Assembly (NCBI RefSeq): GCF_001677475.2
Contig: NZ_CP015229.1
DNA length: 64,000 nucleotides
Direction: 5' to 3' (one strand)
DNA from: Escherichia coli
GTDB lineage: Bacteria; Pseudomonadota; Gammaproteobacteria; Enterobacterales; Enterobacteriaceae
This document shows, one piece after another, positions 5,034-64,000 of this stretch. Within the stretch, counting starts at the first letter, position 1, and each line of letters starts with the position of its first letter. The notes beneath the pieces were generated by a model, which worked only from the letters and a program-made list of their open reading frames with translations, had not been told where the DNA came from and did no database searches. The position numbers and the translations under genes were made by a program.

Positions 5034-5991
5034 AGCACTACTGAACGCGGGACGTCAGACGTTAATACTGGAGTTGCAGGAAGCAAGCCGTTTACCGGAA
5101 CGTCTGGGCGATGATTTTGTTCGCGCCGCCAATATCATCCTGCACTGCGAAGGCAAAGTGGTGGTTTCGGGAATTGGCAAATCGGGCCACATTGGTAAGA
5201 AAATCGCCGCAACGCTTGCCAGTACCGGCACACCGGCTTTTTTTGTCCATCCCGCAGAAGCACTGCACGGCGATCTGGGGATGATTGAAAGCCGCGATGT
5301 GATGCTGTTTATCTCTTACTCCGGTGGTGCGAAGGAACTGGATCTGATTATTCCGCGTCTGGAAGACAAATCTATCGCGCTGCTGGCGATGACCGGCAAA
5401 CCGACGTCACCGCTGGGCCTGGCGGCAAAAGCGGTGCTGGATATCTCCGTAGAACGCGAAGCCTGTCCGATGCACCTTGCGCCGACCTCCAGCACCGTCA
5501 ATACCCTGATGATGGGTGACGCGCTGGCGATGGCGGTCATGCAGGCACGCGGATTTAATGAAGAAGATTTTGCCCGCTCCCACCCAGCTGGGGCACTGGG
5601 CGCTCGCTTGCTGAATAAAGTGCATCATCTGATGCGCCGTGATGACGCTATCCCACAGGTAGCATTAACCGCTAGCGTGATGGACGCGATGCTGGAACTC
5701 AGCCGCACCGGTTTAGGTCTGGTGGCAGTGTGCGATGATCAACGACTGGTGAAAGGCGTCTTTACTGACGGCGATTTACGTCGCTGGCTGGTTGGCGGCG
5801 GCGCACTCACCACGCCAGTTAATGAAGCGATGACGACAGGCGGCACCACATTACAGGCGCAAAGTCGCGCCATCGACGCTAAAGAGATCCTGATGAAGCG
5901 CAAAATCACTGCCGCACCGGTGGTGGATGAAAACGGCAAACTCACCGGCGCAATTAACCTGCAGGATTTCTATCAGGCCGGGATTATTTAA
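5026..5991 (+). CDS. gutQ: D-arabinose 5-phosphate isomerase (SIS + tandem CBS domains)
   Basis: 321 aa ORF with SIS motif [15 protein letters not shown] and C-terminal CBS pair; overlaps srlR stop. Confidence 0.95.
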
Positions 5992-46791: not shown

Positions 46792-47931
46792 TTATCGCTG
46801 CGGCAAATAACGCAGCGGGTTTACGGATTTCCCCTTGTAACGAATTTCAAAATGCAAGCGTGTTGAACTGGTTCCGGTGCTACCCATGGTTGCTATTTTT
46901 TGCCCCGCCTTCACTTCTTGTTGTTCCCGGACCAGCATTGTGTCGTTATGGGCGTAGGCACTCAGGTAATCATCATTATGTTTGATGATAATCAGATTAC
47001 CGTAGCCGCGCAGCGCGTTACCGGCATAAACAACGCGGCCATCTGCGGTCGCGATAATTGCCTGTCCTTTGCTGCCTGCGATATCAATCCCCTTGTTGCC
47101 CCCCTCAGAAGCGCCAAAGGTTTCGATCACTTTACCCTCAGTCGGCCAGCGCCAGGTGGAGATAGGCGTACTGGTTGATGTACTGCTGACAGTCGGCTCG
47201 GTTGTGCTTGCTGTTGGTACCGTTACAGGCGCTGTGACCGTGGTCGCAGTTGGCTTGTTGTTCGGCAACATTTTGTTAGCACTCTGTTCACCCGAAGACT
47301 CAGAATACGTAATTGTCGGTTGCGAAGCAACAGCAACGGTGGAATTTTGTGCAGGCTTGATCACAACTCCTTGCTCTGCTGCGTCGGCCTGGGTAATGGC
47401 ATTTCCGCCAGTGATTGGAGTACCGGAAGCATTCCCCACCTGTAAGGTCTGACCGACGTTCAGCGCGTATGGTGCCTGAATATTGTTGCGCTGAGCAAGG
47501 TCACGGAAATCGTTGCCAGTAATCCAGGCGATATAGAAAAGTGTGTCGCCTTTTTTCACTGTATAGGTACTGCCGCTATAACTGCCTTTCGGAATGTTCC
47601 CATACTGACGGTTATAGACGATGCGTCCGTTTTCCATCTGTACCGGCTGCTGAGCTACTGGCTGCACCGGCTGGATTTGCGGTTGTTGAGTGGCCTGAAT
47701 TTGTGGCTGCTGTACCGGCTGAATTTGCGGTTGCTGAGTTGTAGACGTCGTCCCCATTTTCGGCGGCGGCGTAATCAACATACCAGAATTGGTATTTGCA
47801 GGCGCATTGCCATTAACGGAGCTGACCGGGGCCGGTGGATTTGAAGTGTCAGAACAGCCTGCCAGCCATAGCGAAACCAGTGACAAAGCCGCAATGCGGC
47901 GAACGGTGAATTTTGGGCTTCCCGCGCTCAT
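46792..47931 (-). CDS. nlpD: Murein hydrolase activator lipoprotein NlpD (LysM + M23 peptidase-like)
   Basis: 379 aa ORF with lipobox LAGCS, Gln/Pro-rich repeats, LysM and C-terminal LytM domain. Confidence 0.95.
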
Positions 47932-55758: not shown

Positions 55759-56796
55759 ATGTTTTCCGCATTGCGCCACCGTACCGCTGCCCTGGCGCTC
55801 GGCGTATGCTTTATCCTCCCCGTACACGCCTCGTCACCTAAACCTGGCGATTTTGCTAATACCCAGGCACGACATATTGCTACTTTCTTTCCGGGACGCA
55901 TGACCGGAACTCCTGCAGAAATGTTATCTGCCGATTATATTCGCCAACAGTTTCAGCAAATGGGTTATCGCAGTGATATTCGGACATTTAATAGTCGGTA
56001 TATCTTCACCGATAAAAACAAGCGTAAAAGCTGGCATAACGTGACAGGAAGTACGGTGATTGCCGCTCATGAAGGAAAAGTGCCCCAGCAAATCATCATC
56101 ATGGCGCATCTTGATACCTATGCTCCGCAAAGCGATGCAGATATTGATGCCAACCTTGGCGGGTTAACATTACAAGGTGTGGATGATAATGCCGCAGGCC
56201 TTGGTGTTATGCTTGAACTGGCAGAGCGCCTGAAAGATATTCCTACTGAGTATGGGATTCGTTTTATTGCCACCAGTGGTGAAGAGGAAGGGAAATTAGG
56301 TGCTGAGAATTTACTCAAGCGGATGAGCGATACTGAAAAGAAAAATACCTTACTGGTGATTAATCTCGATAATTTGATCGTGGGCGATAAGCTTTATTTT
56401 AATAGTGGCGTAAATACACCGGAAGCTGTCAGGAAATTAACCCGTGATCGAGCGCTGGCAATTGCGCGTAGTCATGGAATTGCCGCAACGACCAATCCGG
56501 GTTTGAATAAAAATTATCCGAAAGGCACTGGGTGTTGTAATGACGCAGAAATATTCGACAAAGCCGGTATTGCTGTACTTTCGGTGGAAGCGACTAACTG
56601 GAATCTTGGGAATAAGGATGGTTATCAGCAACGCGCAAAAACAGCCGCATTCCCTGCGGGAAATAGCTGGCATGATGTAAGGCTTGATAATCAACAACAT
56701 ATTGATAAGGCGCTTCCTGGAAGAATAGAACGTCGCTGCCGTGATGTTATGCGGATAATGCTACCTCTGGTGAAGGAGTTGGCGAAGGCGTCTTGA
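55759..56796 (+). CDS. iap: Alkaline phosphatase isozyme conversion aminopeptidase
   Basis: 345 aa ORF with signal peptide and M28-family peptidase core, immediately upstream of the CRISPR array. Confidence 0.93.
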   Translation: MFSALRHRTAALALGVCFILPVHASSPKPGDFANTQARHIATFFPGRMTGTPAEMLSADYIRQQFQQMGYRSDIRTFNSRYIFTDKNKRKSWHNVTGSTVIAAHEGKVPQQIIIMAHLDTYAPQSDADIDANLGGLTLQGVDDNAAGLGVMLELAERLKDIPTEYGIRFIATSGEEEGKLGAENLLKRMSDTEKKNTLLVINLDNLIVGDKLYFNSGVNTPEAVRKLTRDRALAIARSHGIAATTNPGLNKNYPKGTGCCNDAEIFDKAGIAVLSVEATNWNLGNKDGYQQRAKTAAFPAGNSWHDVRLDNQQHIDKALPGRIERRCRDVMRIMLPLVKELAKAS

Positions 56797-56816: not shown

Positions 56817-57516
56817 GGGAGTTCTACCGCAGGGGCGGGGAACTCCAAGTGATATCCATCATCGCATCCAGTGCGCCCGGTTTATCCCCGCTGGCGCGGG
56901 GAACACCAAATCCAGCCAGCCGCCGACGGTAATCACCCCGGTTTATCCCCGCTGGCGCGGGGAACACTATGGGGTAGGGCGCTATCAGACATTTACGCAC
57001 GGTTTATCCCCGCTGGCGCGGGGAACACTGCAAGTAACGTTAAGGGAACCGTGGAGACAGCGGTTTATCCCCGCTGGCGCGGGGAACACTTAGAAAACGC
57101 AATGAGCCGCGCGCCCATACCCGGTTTATCCCCGCTGGCGCGGGGAACACGGCACGCTGGACTGAACAAATCCCTGGGCCATCGGTTTATCCCCGCTGGC
57201 GCGGGGAACACACTTACAACCACAATAATAAAAAAAGCCTCGTCGGTTTATCCCCGCTGGCGCGGGGAACACGCCGCTATCTCACCACCAGAACTGTTAC
57301 CCGTCGGTTTATCCCCGCTGGCGCGGGGAACACTTGCAGTGGATAGTCATGTAGCCCGCGCGGGCCGGTTTATCCCCGCTGGCGCGGGGAACACTTTAAA
57401 TACTGCCGTTCCAGCTTGTTGATCGCCGGTTTATCCCCGCTGGCGCGGGGAACACCGTAACTGCCTGTACACGCTGTAATGGCTCACCGGTTTATCCCCG
57501 CTGGCGCGGGGAACAC
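56817..57516 (-). CRISPR. Type I-E CRISPR array: 12 repeats (11 canonical + 1 degenerate terminal) and 11 spacers of 32 bp
   Basis: 29 bp repeat cggtttatccccgctggcgcggggaacac (plus strand) at 56878, 56939, 57000, 57061, 57122, 57183, 57244, 57305, 57366, 57427, 57488 with exact 61 bp period; degenerate repeat gggagttctaccgcaggggcggggaactc at 56817-56845 at the leader-distal (iap) end. The crRNA is read from the minus strand. Confidence 0.98.
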
Positions 57517-57612
57517 ACTAAGCATACATAACTGTTTTTAAACAAATTTATTCCGCATCAACAATCTACCAACTAAATTAAAACATTTCCTTATTTTTAA
57601 AGAACGGATAAC
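57517..57612 (-). promoter_or_regulatory. CRISPR leader (AT-rich, contains the array promoter)
   Basis: 96 bp AT-rich segment between the first repeat and the cas2 stop codon. Confidence 0.8.
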
Positions 57613-58822
<1,210 letters not shown>

Positions 58823-58826
<4 letters not shown>

Positions 58827-59473
58827 GCCTCTGCTCCGGGTTTGATCAGCATCAGACCACAACCGAACGCCCGGCTTTTGCCATACCCCTGACTGAGACG
58901 TTGCAGAAATAACCCAGGATCGGTGACCGTAAGCATCCCCGTATAATCCACGCTACTGAACTGGATCAGTTGCCGGGAGTTTTCCCGCCGCAGTTGCTGT
59001 TGTCGGTAGGCATCAACCGAAGTATCCAGCAGTGTAAAACCGCTTCTCTCCCCCTGCGCTGCCAGCCAGTTCAGCGCAGCCTGTTGTTGATGCAACCAGA
59101 CATCACTTCCTTCCACCGGCCCCCTCACCTGCCGTTTCGCCTCCATCAGCAAGTCGTGGCGTTTGCCCGCTTTACAAATTGTTGGATTCGCCCGCAGGTT
59201 GAAACAAAGGGATTGTCCGGTACGCAACTCTGGCGCAAATGGTCGGCATTCGATGGTGAAAATATCACTTTCCGCCGGGCGTTCCTGCGACAGGACAAAA
59301 AAGCGAAACGCCCCCTGGAGTTCTTCCCGACGATAAAGAAATTGCCTTTCTTTGCCGCCAGGAAAAAGATCCCACAGCCACTGATGCATTACATATTCAC
59401 CGCGATCCACCAAATGCAGCAACTGCGCAGGCGAAAGCTGGCCGGTATGTAATGTTATTCTTGAGAGGTACAT
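58823..59473 (-). CDS. cas6e: crRNA endoribonuclease Cas6e (CasE/Cse3)
   Basis: Start at ATG 59471-59473 (MYLSRITLH, matching the conserved MYLS N-terminus); glycine-rich C-terminal loop GCGLMLIKP. The track start at 59611 overlaps cas5. Confidence 0.9.
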
Positions 59474-60201
59474 GGTTCCTCCTTGCTGAGCCACGGCCCC
59501 TGATTGATGGTGCGTTCCCCAAACAGCCACTGCTGACGATTTAAAGGAACATCCCGGCGACGTAATATTTTGCTCGCGACCAGGCCGTCGTGTTCCCCTT
59601 CCCACCAGCATTCATCCTGAAGTTTCGGGAGTGAGACTTTCAGTTCGCGGAAACTATCCTGATACTGTTGGTATGCGTTACGTAAGACATCAGACGCGTT
59701 GCCTTCGAGCAGTAACGGCGCAAGTGGTAACGCCAGCGGATGACTTTTTCGCCCCAGATAAAGCGGAAAAACCGGATGACGTAAACCGTCCTGCAACTGT
59801 TCAAGGCTGTAAGGCGCATCGGGGGTTGTTGCCACCGCCACCATCCACCAGGCATCGGTGTAGTAGTCGCGCCGGGAGATAATCGCGCTCAGAAGATCAG
59901 GGGCGCTCAACTCTTCGCGACGGCTGAAATAACGCGCTTTACGCACCTCTTTTGGCATCTGGACCGTGTGATAATCCCGTGCCCAGCGCGGGTTACGGCT
60001 GGCGCAAACCACCAGTGAATAGTGGCGGTTAAACGCGTTTAATCGTTCGGTATCATCACGCCGAATCCCTACCCCGGCAGCCAGCAGCCCCAGCAATGCT
60101 GAGCGCGAAGGCAGTTCATGGGTATGACGCACTTCGCCGGGGGCATCGACGCCCCAGGATGCCATTGGCCCATGAAGCTGAAAAATCAAATATTGGCTCA
60201 T
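59455..60201 (-). CDS. cas5: Cascade subunit Cas5 (CasD)
   Basis: 248 aa ORF MSQYLIFQLHGPMASWG, conserved Cas5e N-terminus. Confidence 0.9.
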   Translation of the reverse strand: MSQYLIFQLHGPMASWGVDAPGEVRHTHELPSRSALLGLLAAGVGIRRDDTERLNAFNRHYSLVVCASRNPRWARDYHTVQMPKEVRKARYFSRREELSAPDLLSAIISRRDYYTDAWWMVAVATTPDAPYSLEQLQDGLRHPVFPLYLGRKSHPLALPLAPLLLEGNASDVLRNAYQQYQDSFRELKVSLPKLQDECWWEGEHDGLVASKILRRRDVPLNRQQWLFGERTINQGPWLSKEEPCTSQE

Positions 60202-60211
60202 TAGCCGCCCC

Positions 60212-61267
60212 TTACGCGCAGATAAAGTCCAGCACGTCCTTCATGCTTCCCTGTTTGTTCATCACGTCAAAGCTTGCGCATTCGGTCTTCTGTTCATAGA
60301 CCGTATTCATATTTTCGCGAAGCGTTGTAATACGCTGCACCGCCACATCTAACTGCCGGGTGCCATTAATGGGTTCATAGAAAGCCGCCGCCAGAGAGCG
60401 TGGTTGTTCAGTGCCTTTTTCTGCCAGCGCCCAGGAGGCGTAGGCACGGCTGGCAAAGCTGTTCTGTTTGCCGGTTGGGGAGACTTTAAGTGCGGCTTCC
60501 GTAAAGGCGCGCAAGGTCTGATTAGCTAACGCTTCGTCACCGCCGAGGTTTTCGACCAGCAGATCTTTATCGATGCAGATATAGGTGTAGAACAGCGCAG
60601 AACCGAATCCGGTTTCACCAAGATGCCCGGCACCGGCATCTTCAGAAGCCTGGCGCAAATCATCAACGGCGGTGAAAAAATCATCTTCGACAATCGTTTC
60701 ACTGACACCAAATGCATGCGCGACCTGGCAGGCGGCTTCAACATTAAATTCGGGTTTATTCGCCAGCATACGACCAAACATAGCGATATCTACTGCCATG
60801 CGATCTTTACGTAACAAAGCGAGATCTTCCTCTTTTGGCGCGCGCTTTTCTTCGGCCAGTTGATGGGCCAGCGCTTTTACGGCGTCAAATTCTGCCGGGC
60901 TGATATGGACTAGCTGTTCAGTTTCGGCGTTAGTGAGCGGATCTTTTGGTTTTTTGTCGTTTTTAGCTTTCCCAAGATAATCCGCAATTTTCGCCGCCCA
61001 TTCGATGGCTTTTTTCTCTTCGATGCCTTTCTCAATCAGGATAGTTGCCGCCTCACGCGCAATACGCCCACTGCGAATACCAATATGGCCCGCCAGCGCC
61101 TGTTCAAAAAGTGCAGAAGTGCGCCACGCACGTTTCAGACTTTGTGAGGAAACGCGCAGACGCGTTGCTCCACCCAGTACCACAGTTTTTGGCGCACCGG
61201 TGTCATCACGGTTAAGGTTGGCAGCAGGGTAAGCGGTTAACAAATGAAGCTGAATAAATGTCGTCAT
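60212..61267 (-). CDS. cas7: Cascade backbone subunit Cas7 (CasC/Cse4)
   Basis: 351 aa ORF MTTFIQLHLLTAYPAANLNRDDTGAPKT, Cas7e signature. Confidence 0.9.
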   Translation of the reverse strand: MTTFIQLHLLTAYPAANLNRDDTGAPKTVVLGGATRLRVSSQSLKRAWRTSALFEQALAGHIGIRSGRIAREAATILIEKGIEEKKAIEWAAKIADYLGKAKNDKKPKDPLTNAETEQLVHISPAEFDAVKALAHQLAEEKRAPKEEDLALLRKDRMAVDIAMFGRMLANKPEFNVEAACQVAHAFGVSETIVEDDFFTAVDDLRQASEDAGAGHLGETGFGSALFYTYICIDKDLLVENLGGDEALANQTLRAFTEAALKVSPTGKQNSFASRAYASWALAEKGTEQPRSLAAAFYEPINGTRQLDVAVQRITTLRENMNTVYEQKTECASFDVMNKQGSMKDVLDFICA

Positions 61268-61281
61268 GAGATAGTCCTTTA

Positions 61282-61818
61282 TTAATTTTGTTCGTTATCG
61301 GCGTCGCCAGCCTGGTAATATTCCAGCGCCCAGCGGATACGGATAAATTCTGTTGGCCGCTGCTGGCGGCGGTGATGATTGAGCAGATCGTCGCTCTCCT
61401 GGCACCAGCGGAAAATATCGTCTGCCAAAGAGATAAGATTGACGGAACCATTTAATAATTTGACCGCGCGACGTAACTGGCGCAGTAATTCATCCGGCGT
61501 TTTGACTGCCGACAGGCGAGTAAAACGCCCCTCAGACATTACCGCCGCCAACTGCGCGGCAAAAGGCTGCCGTTCATCAATGGCTTTTACATTGGCGGCA
61601 ACGGCGGCAACCAGCGCCAGTGCGGTAAAACGCCACTCCTGTGATTCAATTTTCCACAACGTGTGGGTCTGCATCAGCAGTGAACGAAACCCTTCTGACA
61701 GACAAACATCATTAACCGTTGTGCTACGCCGCAGACTGGCACGATTGCCGCGTTTTTCCTGCAACTCTTCGTGCCATTTACGCAGCGTGGCTTTGTGCTC
61801 CTCTTTTACAATACTCAT
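61282..61818 (-). CDS. cse2: Cascade small subunit Cse2 (CasB)
   Basis: 178 aa ORF; its ATG overlaps the cse1 stop (ATGA). Confidence 0.88.
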   Translation of the reverse strand: MSIVKEEHKATLRKWHEELQEKRGNRASLRRSTTVNDVCLSEGFRSLLMQTHTLWKIESQEWRFTALALVAAVAANVKAIDERQPFAAQLAAVMSEGRFTRLSAVKTPDELLRQLRRAVKLLNGSVNLISLADDIFRWCQESDDLLNHHRRQQRPTEFIRIRWALEYYQAGDADNEQN

Positions 61819-63377
61819 TCAGCAGCCTCCTGCTTTTTCTCCCTGGCGGCTTTAGCACTTTGCTTCTCCGCCGATGTTGTAAAATATTTCTTGCGCGCGG
61901 TCATGACGCGTTTCAAATCAACGGGCTCATAAGGATTAGTGAATACACGCTCGTCAAAATCCTGACGCGCGAATAACCAAATTTCCTTTTGCCATTTGCC
62001 GAGTAATTCATCCGCATCCTGACCTTCTTCAATTTGGCGCACTAACCTCAGGAAGCGATGCTGAGTTTTGTTCCAGAAGTCGATATCCACAAAACTGAAA
62101 TCACCCCTTGCACCTTTTGGATCGGAGAACCATGCTTCTTTCAATGCACTCCGTAACAGACTCAGAATCCGTGAAGCCGTTTGCGCAGCCAGCCGCAGCT
62201 TCGGTATCTGGCCTTCTTTTTTATTGAGCAGTAGCGGGAAATGGTGTTCGTACCAACAGCGCGCTTTCATGTTGTCAAAATCATAACCAAATCCCCACAG
62301 GCCCACTTTTGCCTGTTTCAGACTGCTGGCATTAAAGAGTTTCACCACCAGCGCGGGAAGTTCCGTATTGTTTTCTGATTTACCCGTTTCGATAAGGCCT
62401 AACCAGTCGCGCCAGATTAAACCGCCCGGTTGTGGTTTAACGGAGTAAAACTCGCCACCCTCTTTAAGTGGTACACGGTAAGGCGTTAAGGGATGCTGCC
62501 ACATGGCATAATTGGCACCATAATTTTTGGTCGTCATCAGGCTCAGGAGCGCGTCGTTCTGCTCGTCGCAAATATCGCAGTTGCCGACTGTCGTGGTATT
62601 AAAATCAATACGTATACGCCGCGGCATTCCCCAGTACGCCTGGAGTTTATTGACCTGATCATGGGTTACCACCGCACCGGCCAGTTCGCTGGTACGCGTC
62701 GGGCCTAGCCAGGGGAAAATCAGATCGTCAAATTTTTTGGGTAGCGGTAAGTCGGCTTCATCCTGCGGCATCACGTTGAGCCACAGTTTGCGCCACAAGG
62801 GTGTTTGTTGATTGCCCTGATATTCCTGTAATTCAATGAGAGTCGTCATCGGCCCACCGCCGCGTAAACCGGTGCGATAGCCTTTGCCGCCCGCGGGTGC
62901 ATTCAACTGTAAAGAGAACAAGGCCAATGCTAAGCAATGGGGGCACAGATATTCCGTTACACCCCGCTTGATAAAATGGTCTTTATTAAACTTCGTCGTT
63001 TGAGAACCGGGAATCTCAGGCAGTAGCGAAGCGACCGGAACTTTATCTCCCGTGAGCGCCTCAAAATCCTGCATAAATGAAGGGGAATCTGGCCCAAACT
63101 GGAAAGCATGTTCTAAGGACAGCAATGCTTCCCGTAGCTTTTCAGCTTCCAGTCCGTCTTCCCAGATATCATCCCAACGACGATGATCTTTTGGCGCGAA
63201 GCTGGTTTGTAGTAGCCCCAGCAAAAACTGCCAGGCCGCCCCCTGGAGATCTGCCCGCGGCGCAGCGATATCGACAACATTTTCATCCGCCAGATCGACT
63301 GGCGCCAGTTTGCCTGTCGTTCCGTCTTTATAACGAACGGGCAACCACGGGGTTGTTATAATTGAAAAAAATTCCAT
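61815..63377 (-). CDS. cse1: Cascade large subunit Cse1 (CasA)
   Basis: Start at ATG 63375-63377 (MEFFSIITTPWLPVR) gives 520 aa; the sequence is clearly not the K-12 CasA as I recall it, so this is the other E. coli I-E variant. Confidence 0.88.
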   Translation of the reverse strand: MEFFSIITTPWLPVRYKDGTTGKLAPVDLADENVVDIAAPRADLQGAAWQFLLGLLQTSFAPKDHRRWDDIWEDGLEAEKLREALLSLEHAFQFGPDSPSFMQDFEALTGDKVPVASLLPEIPGSQTTKFNKDHFIKRGVTEYLCPHCLALALFSLQLNAPAGGKGYRTGLRGGGPMTTLIELQEYQGNQQTPLWRKLWLNVMPQDEADLPLPKKFDDLIFPWLGPTRTSELAGAVVTHDQVNKLQAYWGMPRRIRIDFNTTTVGNCDICDEQNDALLSLMTTKNYGANYAMWQHPLTPYRVPLKEGGEFYSVKPQPGGLIWRDWLGLIETGKSENNTELPALVVKLFNASSLKQAKVGLWGFGYDFDNMKARCWYEHHFPLLLNKKEGQIPKLRLAAQTASRILSLLRSALKEAWFSDPKGARGDFSFVDIDFWNKTQHRFLRLVRQIEEGQDADELLGKWQKEIWLFARQDFDERVFTNPYEPVDLKRVMTARKKYFTTSAEKQSAKAAREKKQEAAE

Positions 63378-63752
63378 ACGCTTTCCTCGCAAATAAGACC
63401 ATCCATGGTAGGTTGTCCATCACCATATTCAAGAATCAATCGAAAAGAGAGATTACATCATATTAAATGAATATATTGAAAATTAGATTATTATTAAATA
63501 ATCAATAAATCACACGAATATATAAAGATAATTTTCTATAATGCTTTTCGCTCAGGCTCTATCACTTAATAAAAACCAAAGTATTCTTTATCAAAAGGTT
63601 TTTCAACTCTGCTTCCGGACATTGTTACATATATCAATAACTCTTAGAGATTTTCTTTATTTCGAATAACCCTTATTTTTGATATAAACGTCTTCAGTTC
63701 CCTGTCTAAGGGATTAACCAAGTTAGTGATACACGTATATCATTTTATGCTC
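63378..63752 (-). promoter_or_regulatory. AT-rich cse1 upstream region (cas operon promoter region)
   Basis: About 375 bp of very AT-rich DNA between the cas3 end and the cse1 start, as expected for the cas operon promoter region. Confidence 0.7.
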
Positions 63753-63781
63753 CTGTTCCCCGCGTCAGCGGGGATAAGCCC
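63753..63781 (+). repeat. Solitary degenerate CRISPR repeat-like hairpin, inverted relative to the array
   Basis: Plus strand ctgttccccgcgtcagcggggataagccc matches the crRNA-sense repeat gtgttccccgcgccagcggggataaaccg at 25 of 29 positions with the CCCCGC/GCGGGG stem preserved. Confidence 0.85.
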
Positions 63782-63807
63782 TGGCGTCATCCGACTCCAG
63801 GGCATCT

Positions 63808-64000
63808 CAATCAACCTTACCAATCAATCCCTCCGTAGCCGAATACCCGCAACTTTCGTCATCGGTAACTAAAATCACATTTGCCATCTCCGGATCTTGC
63901 CGCTGTTCAACGCACCACTGCCTGAACGCATCCCCTTCCAGTAAAGAAAACTCATCGCGATGTTTTTTCCACCAGCTTCGACGCACTCTGACAACGCTCA
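63808..64000 (-). CDS. cas3: Cas3 helicase-nuclease, C-terminal end (gene starts beyond window end)
   Basis: Open minus-strand frame ending at the stop at 63808-63810 (...EGLIGKVD*), located upstream of cse1 as in type I-E loci. Assignment is by position; only 64 codons are visible. Confidence 0.6.

Follow-up and report, generated by a model that had tools for sequence, protein, structure and literature searches.

The CRISPR I (CRISPR2.1) locus of a divergent Escherichia lineage: an eleven-spacer type I-E array, its cas operon and a predicted creR-like mini-array

A cluster of short, regularly spaced repeats lies between iap and a set of cas genes in a 64,000-nt stretch of Escherichia coli DNA (assembly GCF_001677475.2, contig NZ_CP015229.1), here called the window. 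An initial annotation, made from the letters of the sequence, described the cluster as a CRISPR (short palindromic repeats, clustered and regularly interspaced) array and assigned no targets to its spacers. The locus raises the question of which kind of CRISPR system it represents, whether that system may still be active, and what its spacers record. The array is almost certainly a canonical E. coli type I-E CRISPR array of the CRISPR I locus, also termed CRISPR2.1, accompanied by a leader and an apparently intact cas operon. The assignment to CRISPR I/CRISPR2.1 is made because of the position between iap and cas2e, the homology of the repeat and the leader, and the type I-E identity of the cas genes. 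The nomenclature and position of this locus have been described, as has a repeat number that varies among strains from 2–3 to 29–30 (PMC4489801). Coordinates of the features are collected in Table 1.

The repeat family consists of 12 copies of 29 nt that start at positions 56817+61i (i = 0 to 11), and the exact 61-bp periodicity ascribed to the array therefore holds for all 12 repeats. Eleven of the copies are identical, with starts at 56878, 56939, 57000, 57061, 57122, 57183, 57244, 57305, 57366, 57427 and 57488. The exact repeat pattern occurs 11 times in the window and nowhere outside the array, and 100 dinucleotide-preserving shuffles of the window produced no exact match. The terminal copy on the iap side differs at 10 of its 29 positions and was recovered only with 10 mismatches allowed; it is thus a degenerate, leader-distal repeat, as the initial annotation had proposed. 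This degenerate repeat is also present at the distal end of the arrays of four loci in public assemblies, L013 to L016, chosen as those that encode an exactly identical Iap protein (20 further similar places exist beyond those listed); there is a one-base difference in L015 and L016. As RNA, the consensus repeat folds into a hairpin of −15.2 kcal/mol (z = −3.2), made up of a 7-bp stem and a 4-nt loop, and only 1 of 200 shuffled sequences was as stable. Relative to the leader-proximal repeat of K-12 it has a single base difference. Between the repeats are 11 spacers, all of 32 nt and all different, as first described. With up to 8 mismatches allowed, neither strand of the window contains a second copy of any of them, in agreement with an earlier judgement made by eye. 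The spacer singled out as unusually A-rich, spacer 7, has 31% G+C, compared with 44–62% in the other spacers, and the position given for the newest spacer, 57456-57487, is correct.

On the cas2 side, the array adjoins an AT-rich leader that is identical to the leaders of strains RM9088 and GF43, has few substitutions relative to that of EDL933, and displays block homology to the K-12 leader. From this homology, the promoter of the array and the signals for integration would be expected within it. An exact match to the integration host factor (IHF) consensus WATCAANNNNTTR is present at 57609-57621, but the window has four such matches against 2.1 expected, which is not significant, and no claim is made for the site. 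Beyond the leader are seven cas genes, cas2e through cse1, that match type I-E NCBIfam equivalogs over essentially their full length. For cas1e the start is that of the gene called (307 aa) in L013, an identical contig, and for cse1 it is the ATG at 63377, in line with the annotation of strain GF43. The cas operon shows 98.5% identity to that of E. coli GF43 and represents a non-K-12 variant found in about 2,400–2,700 of 5,426 complete E. coli genomes, the same genome set that is used below. At the leader-distal end the array is flanked by iap, a conserved gene. E. coli genomes have an annotated iap at this position, and in them the homologous feature that separates it from cas2e bears the annotation 'CRISPR'. 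Consensus repeats with a stem loop, uniform and unique spacers, an AT-rich homologous leader, an adjacent I-E cas operon and a pattern of polar spacer acquisition, features by which a type I-E array is recognized, are found at this locus.

The K-12 CRISPR I locus (iap-cas2) has the same order of iap, array, leader and cas2 through cas3, the same architecture of 29-nt repeats and 32-nt spacers, and a terminal repeat that is likewise degenerate. The two loci differ in that no spacer is common to both arrays and in the lengths of several Cas proteins: Cas2 has 97 aa in the window and 94 in K-12, Cas1 307 and 305, and Cas6e 216 and 199. CRISPR1 of O157:H7 and O55:H7 agrees with the window in its cas variant and its anchor spacer 1, and its leader is near-identical; the O157:H7 array, however, has only 3 spacers beyond the anchor.

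The order of spacers in related arrays shows the polarity of the locus. Spacer 1 is matched in 4,250 of the 5,426 complete genomes and is at the distal end of the arrays in all four loci L013 to L016. In L016 (GCA_037967675.1) the order is spacer 1, six other spacers, spacers 2, 3, 6 and 7, fifteen others, and then the leader. Spacers 1, 2, 3, 6 and 7 are therefore shared in the same order, spacers 4 and 5 are absent from L016, and spacers 8–11 at the leader end are specific to the lineage of the window. From the order in L016 it follows that spacers 2–7 are older than the split of the two lineages, and since spacers 8–11 are lineage-specific relative to L016, they were acquired once the two lineages had separated. 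Spacer gain at the leader end, together with internal deletion, would be expected to give such an arrangement. The placement of the leader on the cas2 side by the initial annotation is thus borne out independently, both by leader homology and by the shared leader-distal and lineage-specific leader-end spacers. The 26-spacer array of L016 also contains one spacer, TTCGATATTTCCCGATTTGTGGACGTTGCAGG, twice, at 5210-5241 and 5942-5973 of that locus, which suggests a duplication or a recombination within that array.

The same 11 spacers are present in contig ABVVWG020000002.1 of GCA_043014985.2 (L013), which has 100% identity to the window over 9,038 bp. The complete set is found in none of the 5,426 complete E. 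coli genomes, and at most two of the spacers are common to any one of these genomes; the best alignment of the array region to them is 83%. For the window outside the array (mltB-srl-nor-hyp-asc-hyc, mutS and cysC-cysN-cysD-iap) the best identity among the same genomes is 97.1–97.8%, which places the window in a divergent lineage of Escherichia. The identical Iap protein is encoded beside one or the other E. coli I-E cas variant, depending on the locus, as a comparison of L013 and L014 shows. L014 has the K-12-type Cas2 (94 aa) and Cas1 (305 aa), and its identity to the window drops from 98.9% in the flank to 72.6% in cas2-cas1. The contrast indicates that the cas operon was probably replaced through recombination beside the array. 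The region is also found in a plasmid record: in that of the 293-kb conjugative IncHI2A plasmid pIOMTU792 (L012, NZ_LC542972.1), the segment at 245–248 kb has iap, a CRISPR array with a variant of the anchor spacer, and cas2e-cas1e. This is either the chromosomal CRISPR I region carried on a plasmid or a misassembly.

If the locus works by the established I-E pathway, transcription of the array would proceed from the leader along the minus strand. Cas6e would cut the precursor CRISPR RNA (pre-crRNA) at the base of the repeat hairpins and so release 61-nt crRNAs, each with an 8-nt 5′ handle, AUAAACCG, a 32-nt spacer and a 21-nt hairpin handle. Cascade, formed by Cse1, Cse2, Cas7, Cas5 and Cas6e, would with its crRNA locate DNA flanked by a protospacer adjacent motif (PAM) of the AAG type, which Cas3 would then degrade, and Cas1-Cas2 would add new spacers at the repeat next to the leader. 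For the array considered here, transcription, crRNA processing, interference and any present activity are inferred by analogy with this pathway.

Targets for the spacers were sought in several collections. Concatenated spacers were compared with the INPHARED phages and PLSDB plasmids by blastn (word size 11, E≤1 and E≤10), and no target was detected; the matches obtained were chance identities of 22–27 nt, CRISPR arrays in chromosomes mislabelled as plasmids, and a match to the chromosomal gene raiA. In the 5,426 complete E. coli genomes all matches at the search cut-off are inside CRISPR arrays. Eight exact-pattern scans of IMG/VR with spacers 2, 6, 7, 8, 9, 10 and 11, in which every sixth position or the putative wobble positions were replaced by N, gave 0 matches, as did wobble patterns for spacers 11 and 6 in the GTDB species representatives, among which the source genome is therefore not included. 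A wobble pattern for spacer 11 in JGI metagenomes recovered two CRISPR arrays and three chance matches (7 mismatches, no PAM), and a full-text literature search for the spacer sequences returned no paper. The absence of assigned targets in the initial annotation thus still stands after phage, plasmid, E. coli, IMG/VR, GTDB and JGI metagenome searches. The spacers would preserve a record of mobile elements, once encountered, that the databases searched do not contain.

Several results weigh against the reading of the locus as a canonical and functional I-E system. Rfam at its gathering threshold gave no match anywhere in the window, and a simple sigma-70 scan of the leader found no promoter at the scan threshold. 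Only the last 63 codons of cas3 are within the window, the remainder being beyond its end. A protospacer was found for none of the 11 spacers in the collections searched. In addition, the K-12 system is said to be silenced by H-NS, in work of 2010 ascribed to Pul and to Westra, and activity therefore cannot be assumed. The missing Rfam match is the sole point in favor of regarding the repeats as something other than CRISPR, i.e., as an interspersed repeat resembling repetitive extragenic palindromes or bacterial interspersed mosaic elements (REP/BIME), or as a chance periodicity. The exact 61-nt phasing, the unique 32-nt inserts, the I-E repeat, the leader and the full I-E cas operon refute this idea, and its probability is practically nil. 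Much more serious is the possibility that the array is a silent historical record, repressed as in K-12, with no recent adaptation and with targets that are extinct or no longer circulate. The lack of any spacer match in the phages, plasmids or prophages searched would fit such a record, as would the occurrence of the identical array with its flanks in GCA_043014985.2 and of 20 further places, beyond those listed, that mostly have the same neighboring proteins. However, the window's seven cas genes all have their full length, the non-terminal repeats are all perfect, the leader is conserved, and the four leader-end spacers are lineage-specific relative to L016. On balance a silent record is given somewhat less than an even chance.

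A role of one or more spacers on host genes, for example of spacer 10 in guiding Cascade to raiA for regulation or with autoimmunity as the outcome, was also considered. Spacer 10 has a 22-nt exact match, and 24 identities over its 32 nt, to the chromosomal gene raiA in E. coli, Klebsiella and Salmonella (L018, L019 and L020), and in the raiA frame it reads A-INKLERQ-YL. The match is under the E-value cut-off of the large E. coli search and came to light via chromosomes misfiled as plasmids. By our own estimate, chance would produce it with a probability of about 7e-5 per 5-Mb genome, which speaks for a role of the match, and of about 0.04 over everything searched; its BLAST E-value of 0.3–1 speaks against such a role. 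The site is flanked 5′ by GAA, which is not an interference PAM, and has mismatches at seed positions 1 and 2 and at positions 25–30. Because of this flank and the seed mismatches, raiA is not expected to be an interference target under known I-E rules. No other spacer has a non-CRISPR match in the 5,426 genomes. With its flank and seed mismatches, the partial raiA match lends no support to a self-targeting call, and an action on host genes is very improbable. The match may have originated by chance or from a foreign raiA-like gene. The idea that spacer 10 spans a phage attachment core in raiA was rejected for E. coli, where no attL-type junction with 30 of 32 identities is present in the 5,426 genomes.

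Three of the spacers have near-identical or overlapping counterparts in arrays of unrelated E. coli. Spacer 11 has a variant, in the same register and differing by two transitions with a 3-nt spacing, that occupies an internal position in the CRISPR2 array (ygcE-queE) of about 60 complete genomes (O111 and others) and is present in 2 metagenome contigs. Spacer 2 has a variant with 31 of 32 identities, in the same register and with different neighbors, in the CRISPR1 arrays of RM9088 and MB53. For spacer 6 the counterpart is the second-oldest spacer in CRISPR1 of O157:H7 and O55:H7, which overlaps it with a 3-nt shift and 1 mismatch, and the shift together with the mismatch shows that the O157:H7 spacer was independently acquired. 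The first three bases of spacer 6, ATG, are at the PAM position of the overlapping O157 spacer. AWG is a known PAM of the E. coli I-E system, which the ATG ahead of the O157 spacer would fit. By inspection, the four variant positions in spacers 2, 6 and 11 are compatible with synonymous substitutions at third codon positions of an open frame, an argument to which only the 3-nt spacing in spacer 11 lends real weight. The counterparts of spacers 2, 6 and 11 suggest a recurrent, independent sampling of related protein-coding elements that are as yet unsequenced. It is a tentative proposal, and rather doubtful at present, that E. coli lineages have repeatedly met a still-unsequenced family of protein-coding mobile elements that may be recovered by way of these shared protospacers.

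A second repeat-containing element is present within the cas locus. Between cse1 and cas3 are 414 bp of AT-rich DNA, and there two repeat-like sequences, psiR1 and psiR2, enclose a pseudo-spacer (psiS) to form a degenerate mini-array. Regulatory mini-arrays, or creR RNAs, of I-E loci have been described as directing Cascade to repress the cas promoter (10.1101/2023.03.03.530964, 10.1101/2023.03.10.532045), and Cascade-dependent repression of the cas promoter was found experimentally with a Salmonella I-E creR in E. coli (10.1101/2023.03.10.532045). Elements of this class from cas3-cas8e regions have two degenerate repeats around a 32-nt pseudo-spacer in an orientation opposite to cas3 (Shmakov et al. 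2023; Liu et al. 2023), as does the element in the window. They also have a seed-anchored, AAG-flanked partial match upstream of cse1, and a candidate for such a match is found in the window as well. The predicted target is 234–265 bp upstream of the cse1 ATG, and the pseudo-spacer matches it at positions 1–5, 7–11, 13 and 15–17. This is the only AAG-flanked seed match in the window, and shuffled pseudo-spacers gave an AAG plus seed match in the cse1-cas3 intergenic region in 55 of 20,000 cases. Strain GF43 has the same mini-array with a better match to the target (15 of the first 17 positions). The analogous mini-array of K-12 carries another pseudo-spacer, for which K-12 has a separate partial target flanked by AAG; this target is on the same strand as the mini-array, whereas in the window the predicted target is on the opposite strand. 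In EDL933 the cas3-casA intergenic region has 97 bp and is without a mini-array. From these likenesses, the mini-array is predicted to be a creR-like regulatory element of a known kind.

Two features of the window are distant from the array. Positions 47661-47737 contain 3.2 copies of a 24-nt unit in imperfect tandem (71% matches). Some short stretch within positions 1-25000 is multi-copy in E. coli genomes (megablast, median of 18 places per genome); a search there for the enterobacterial repetitive intergenic consensus (ERIC) element found none.

Table 1. Features of the CRISPR I locus and its surroundings, in coordinates of the window. Spacers are numbered from the leader-distal (oldest) end.
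Feature	Coordinates	Strand	Sequence	Remarks
CRISPR array (E. coli CRISPR I / CRISPR2.1)	56817..57516	-		12 repeats and 11 spacers; predicted transcription away from leader
Eleven identical 29-nt repeats	56878..57516	-	GTGTTCCCCGCGCCAGCGGGGATAAACCG (crRNA sense), CGGTTTATCCCCGCTGGCGCGGGGAACAC on + strand	
Degenerate leader-distal terminal repeat	56817..56845	-	GAGTTCCCCGCCCCTGCGGTAGAACTCCC (crRNA sense)	iap side
Spacer 1 (oldest)	56846..56877	-	GGCGCACTGGATGCGATGATGGATATCACTTG	species-wide anchor spacer
Spacer 2	56907..56938	-	GGGTGATTACCGTCGGCGGCTGGCTGGATTTG	identical in L016
Spacer 3	56968..56999	-	TGCGTAAATGTCTGATAGCGCCCTACCCCATA	common to L016; otherwise no match
Spacer 4	57029..57060	-	CTGTCTCCACGGTTCCCTTAACGTTACTTGCA	only in identical assembly L013; no database match
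Spacer 5	57090..57121	-	GGTATGGGCGCGCGGCTCATTGCGTTTTCTAA	only in L013; no database match
Spacer 6	57151..57182	-	ATGGCCCAGGGATTTGTTCAGTCCAGCGTGCC	common to L016
Spacer 7	57212..57243	-	ACGAGGCTTTTTTTATTATTGTGGTTGTAAGT	A/T-rich, 31% G+C; common to L016; target not found
Spacer 8	57273..57304	-	ACGGGTAACAGTTCTGGTGGTGAGATAGCGGC	lineage-specific; target not found
Spacer 9	57334..57365	-	GCCCGCGCGGGCTACATGACTATCCACTGCAA	lineage-specific; target not found
Spacer 10	57395..57426	-	GCGATCAACAAGCTGGAACGGCAGTATTTAAA	lineage-specific; partial raiA match
Spacer 11 (newest, leader-proximal)	57456..57487	-	GTGAGCCATTACAGCGTGTACAGGCAGTTACG	lineage-specific within array
AT-rich leader	57517..57612	-		96 nt, 26% G+C; adjoins cas2
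iap (alkaline phosphatase isozyme conversion aminopeptidase)	55759..56796	+		NCBIfam NF007568, 701.7 bits, full length
cas2e	57613..57906	-		TIGR01873, 132.5 bits, profile 1-87 of 87
cas1e	57903..58826	-		TIGR03638, 379 bits, profile 3-268 of 269
cas6e (casE), pre-crRNA endonuclease	58823..59473	-		216 aa; TIGR01907, 285 bits, profile 1-207 of 208
cas5e (casD)	59455..60201	-		TIGR01868, 159.6 bits, profile 1-228 of 230
cas7e (casC)	60212..61267	-		TIGR01869, 448 bits, profile 1-325 of 325
cse2 (casB)	61282..61818	-		TIGR02548, 105 bits, profile 2-166 of 167
cse1 (casA / cas8e)	61815..63377	-		TIGR02547, 605 bits, profile 3-504 of 504
cas3, 3′ end	63807..64000	-		stop codon 63807-63809; last 63 codons; aligns with annotated GF43 Cas3 coding sequence
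Degenerate mini-array, predicted creR / regulatory mini-array type	63692..63781	+		inverted relative to main array and cas3
psiR1	63692-63720	+	handle ATTAACCA	stem CCCT/AGGG
Pseudo-spacer (psiS)	63721-63752	+		32 nt
psiR2	63753-63781	+		25/29 to repeat; stem intact
Predicted pseudo-spacer target	63611..63645	-		protospacer 63611-63642, AAG PAM 63643-63645

The locus is an already-known textbook system, and public assemblies already contain the exact array. Its value is mainly in strain typing. A spacer set absent from the 5,426 complete genomes, in a window with no more than 97–98% identity to any of them, marks a divergent Escherichia lineage. The mini-array may serve as a natural variant with which to test the mechanism of autoregulation, and the recurrent sampling of the same protospacers by separate arrays would add to the long-standing puzzle of E. 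coli spacers without known targets.

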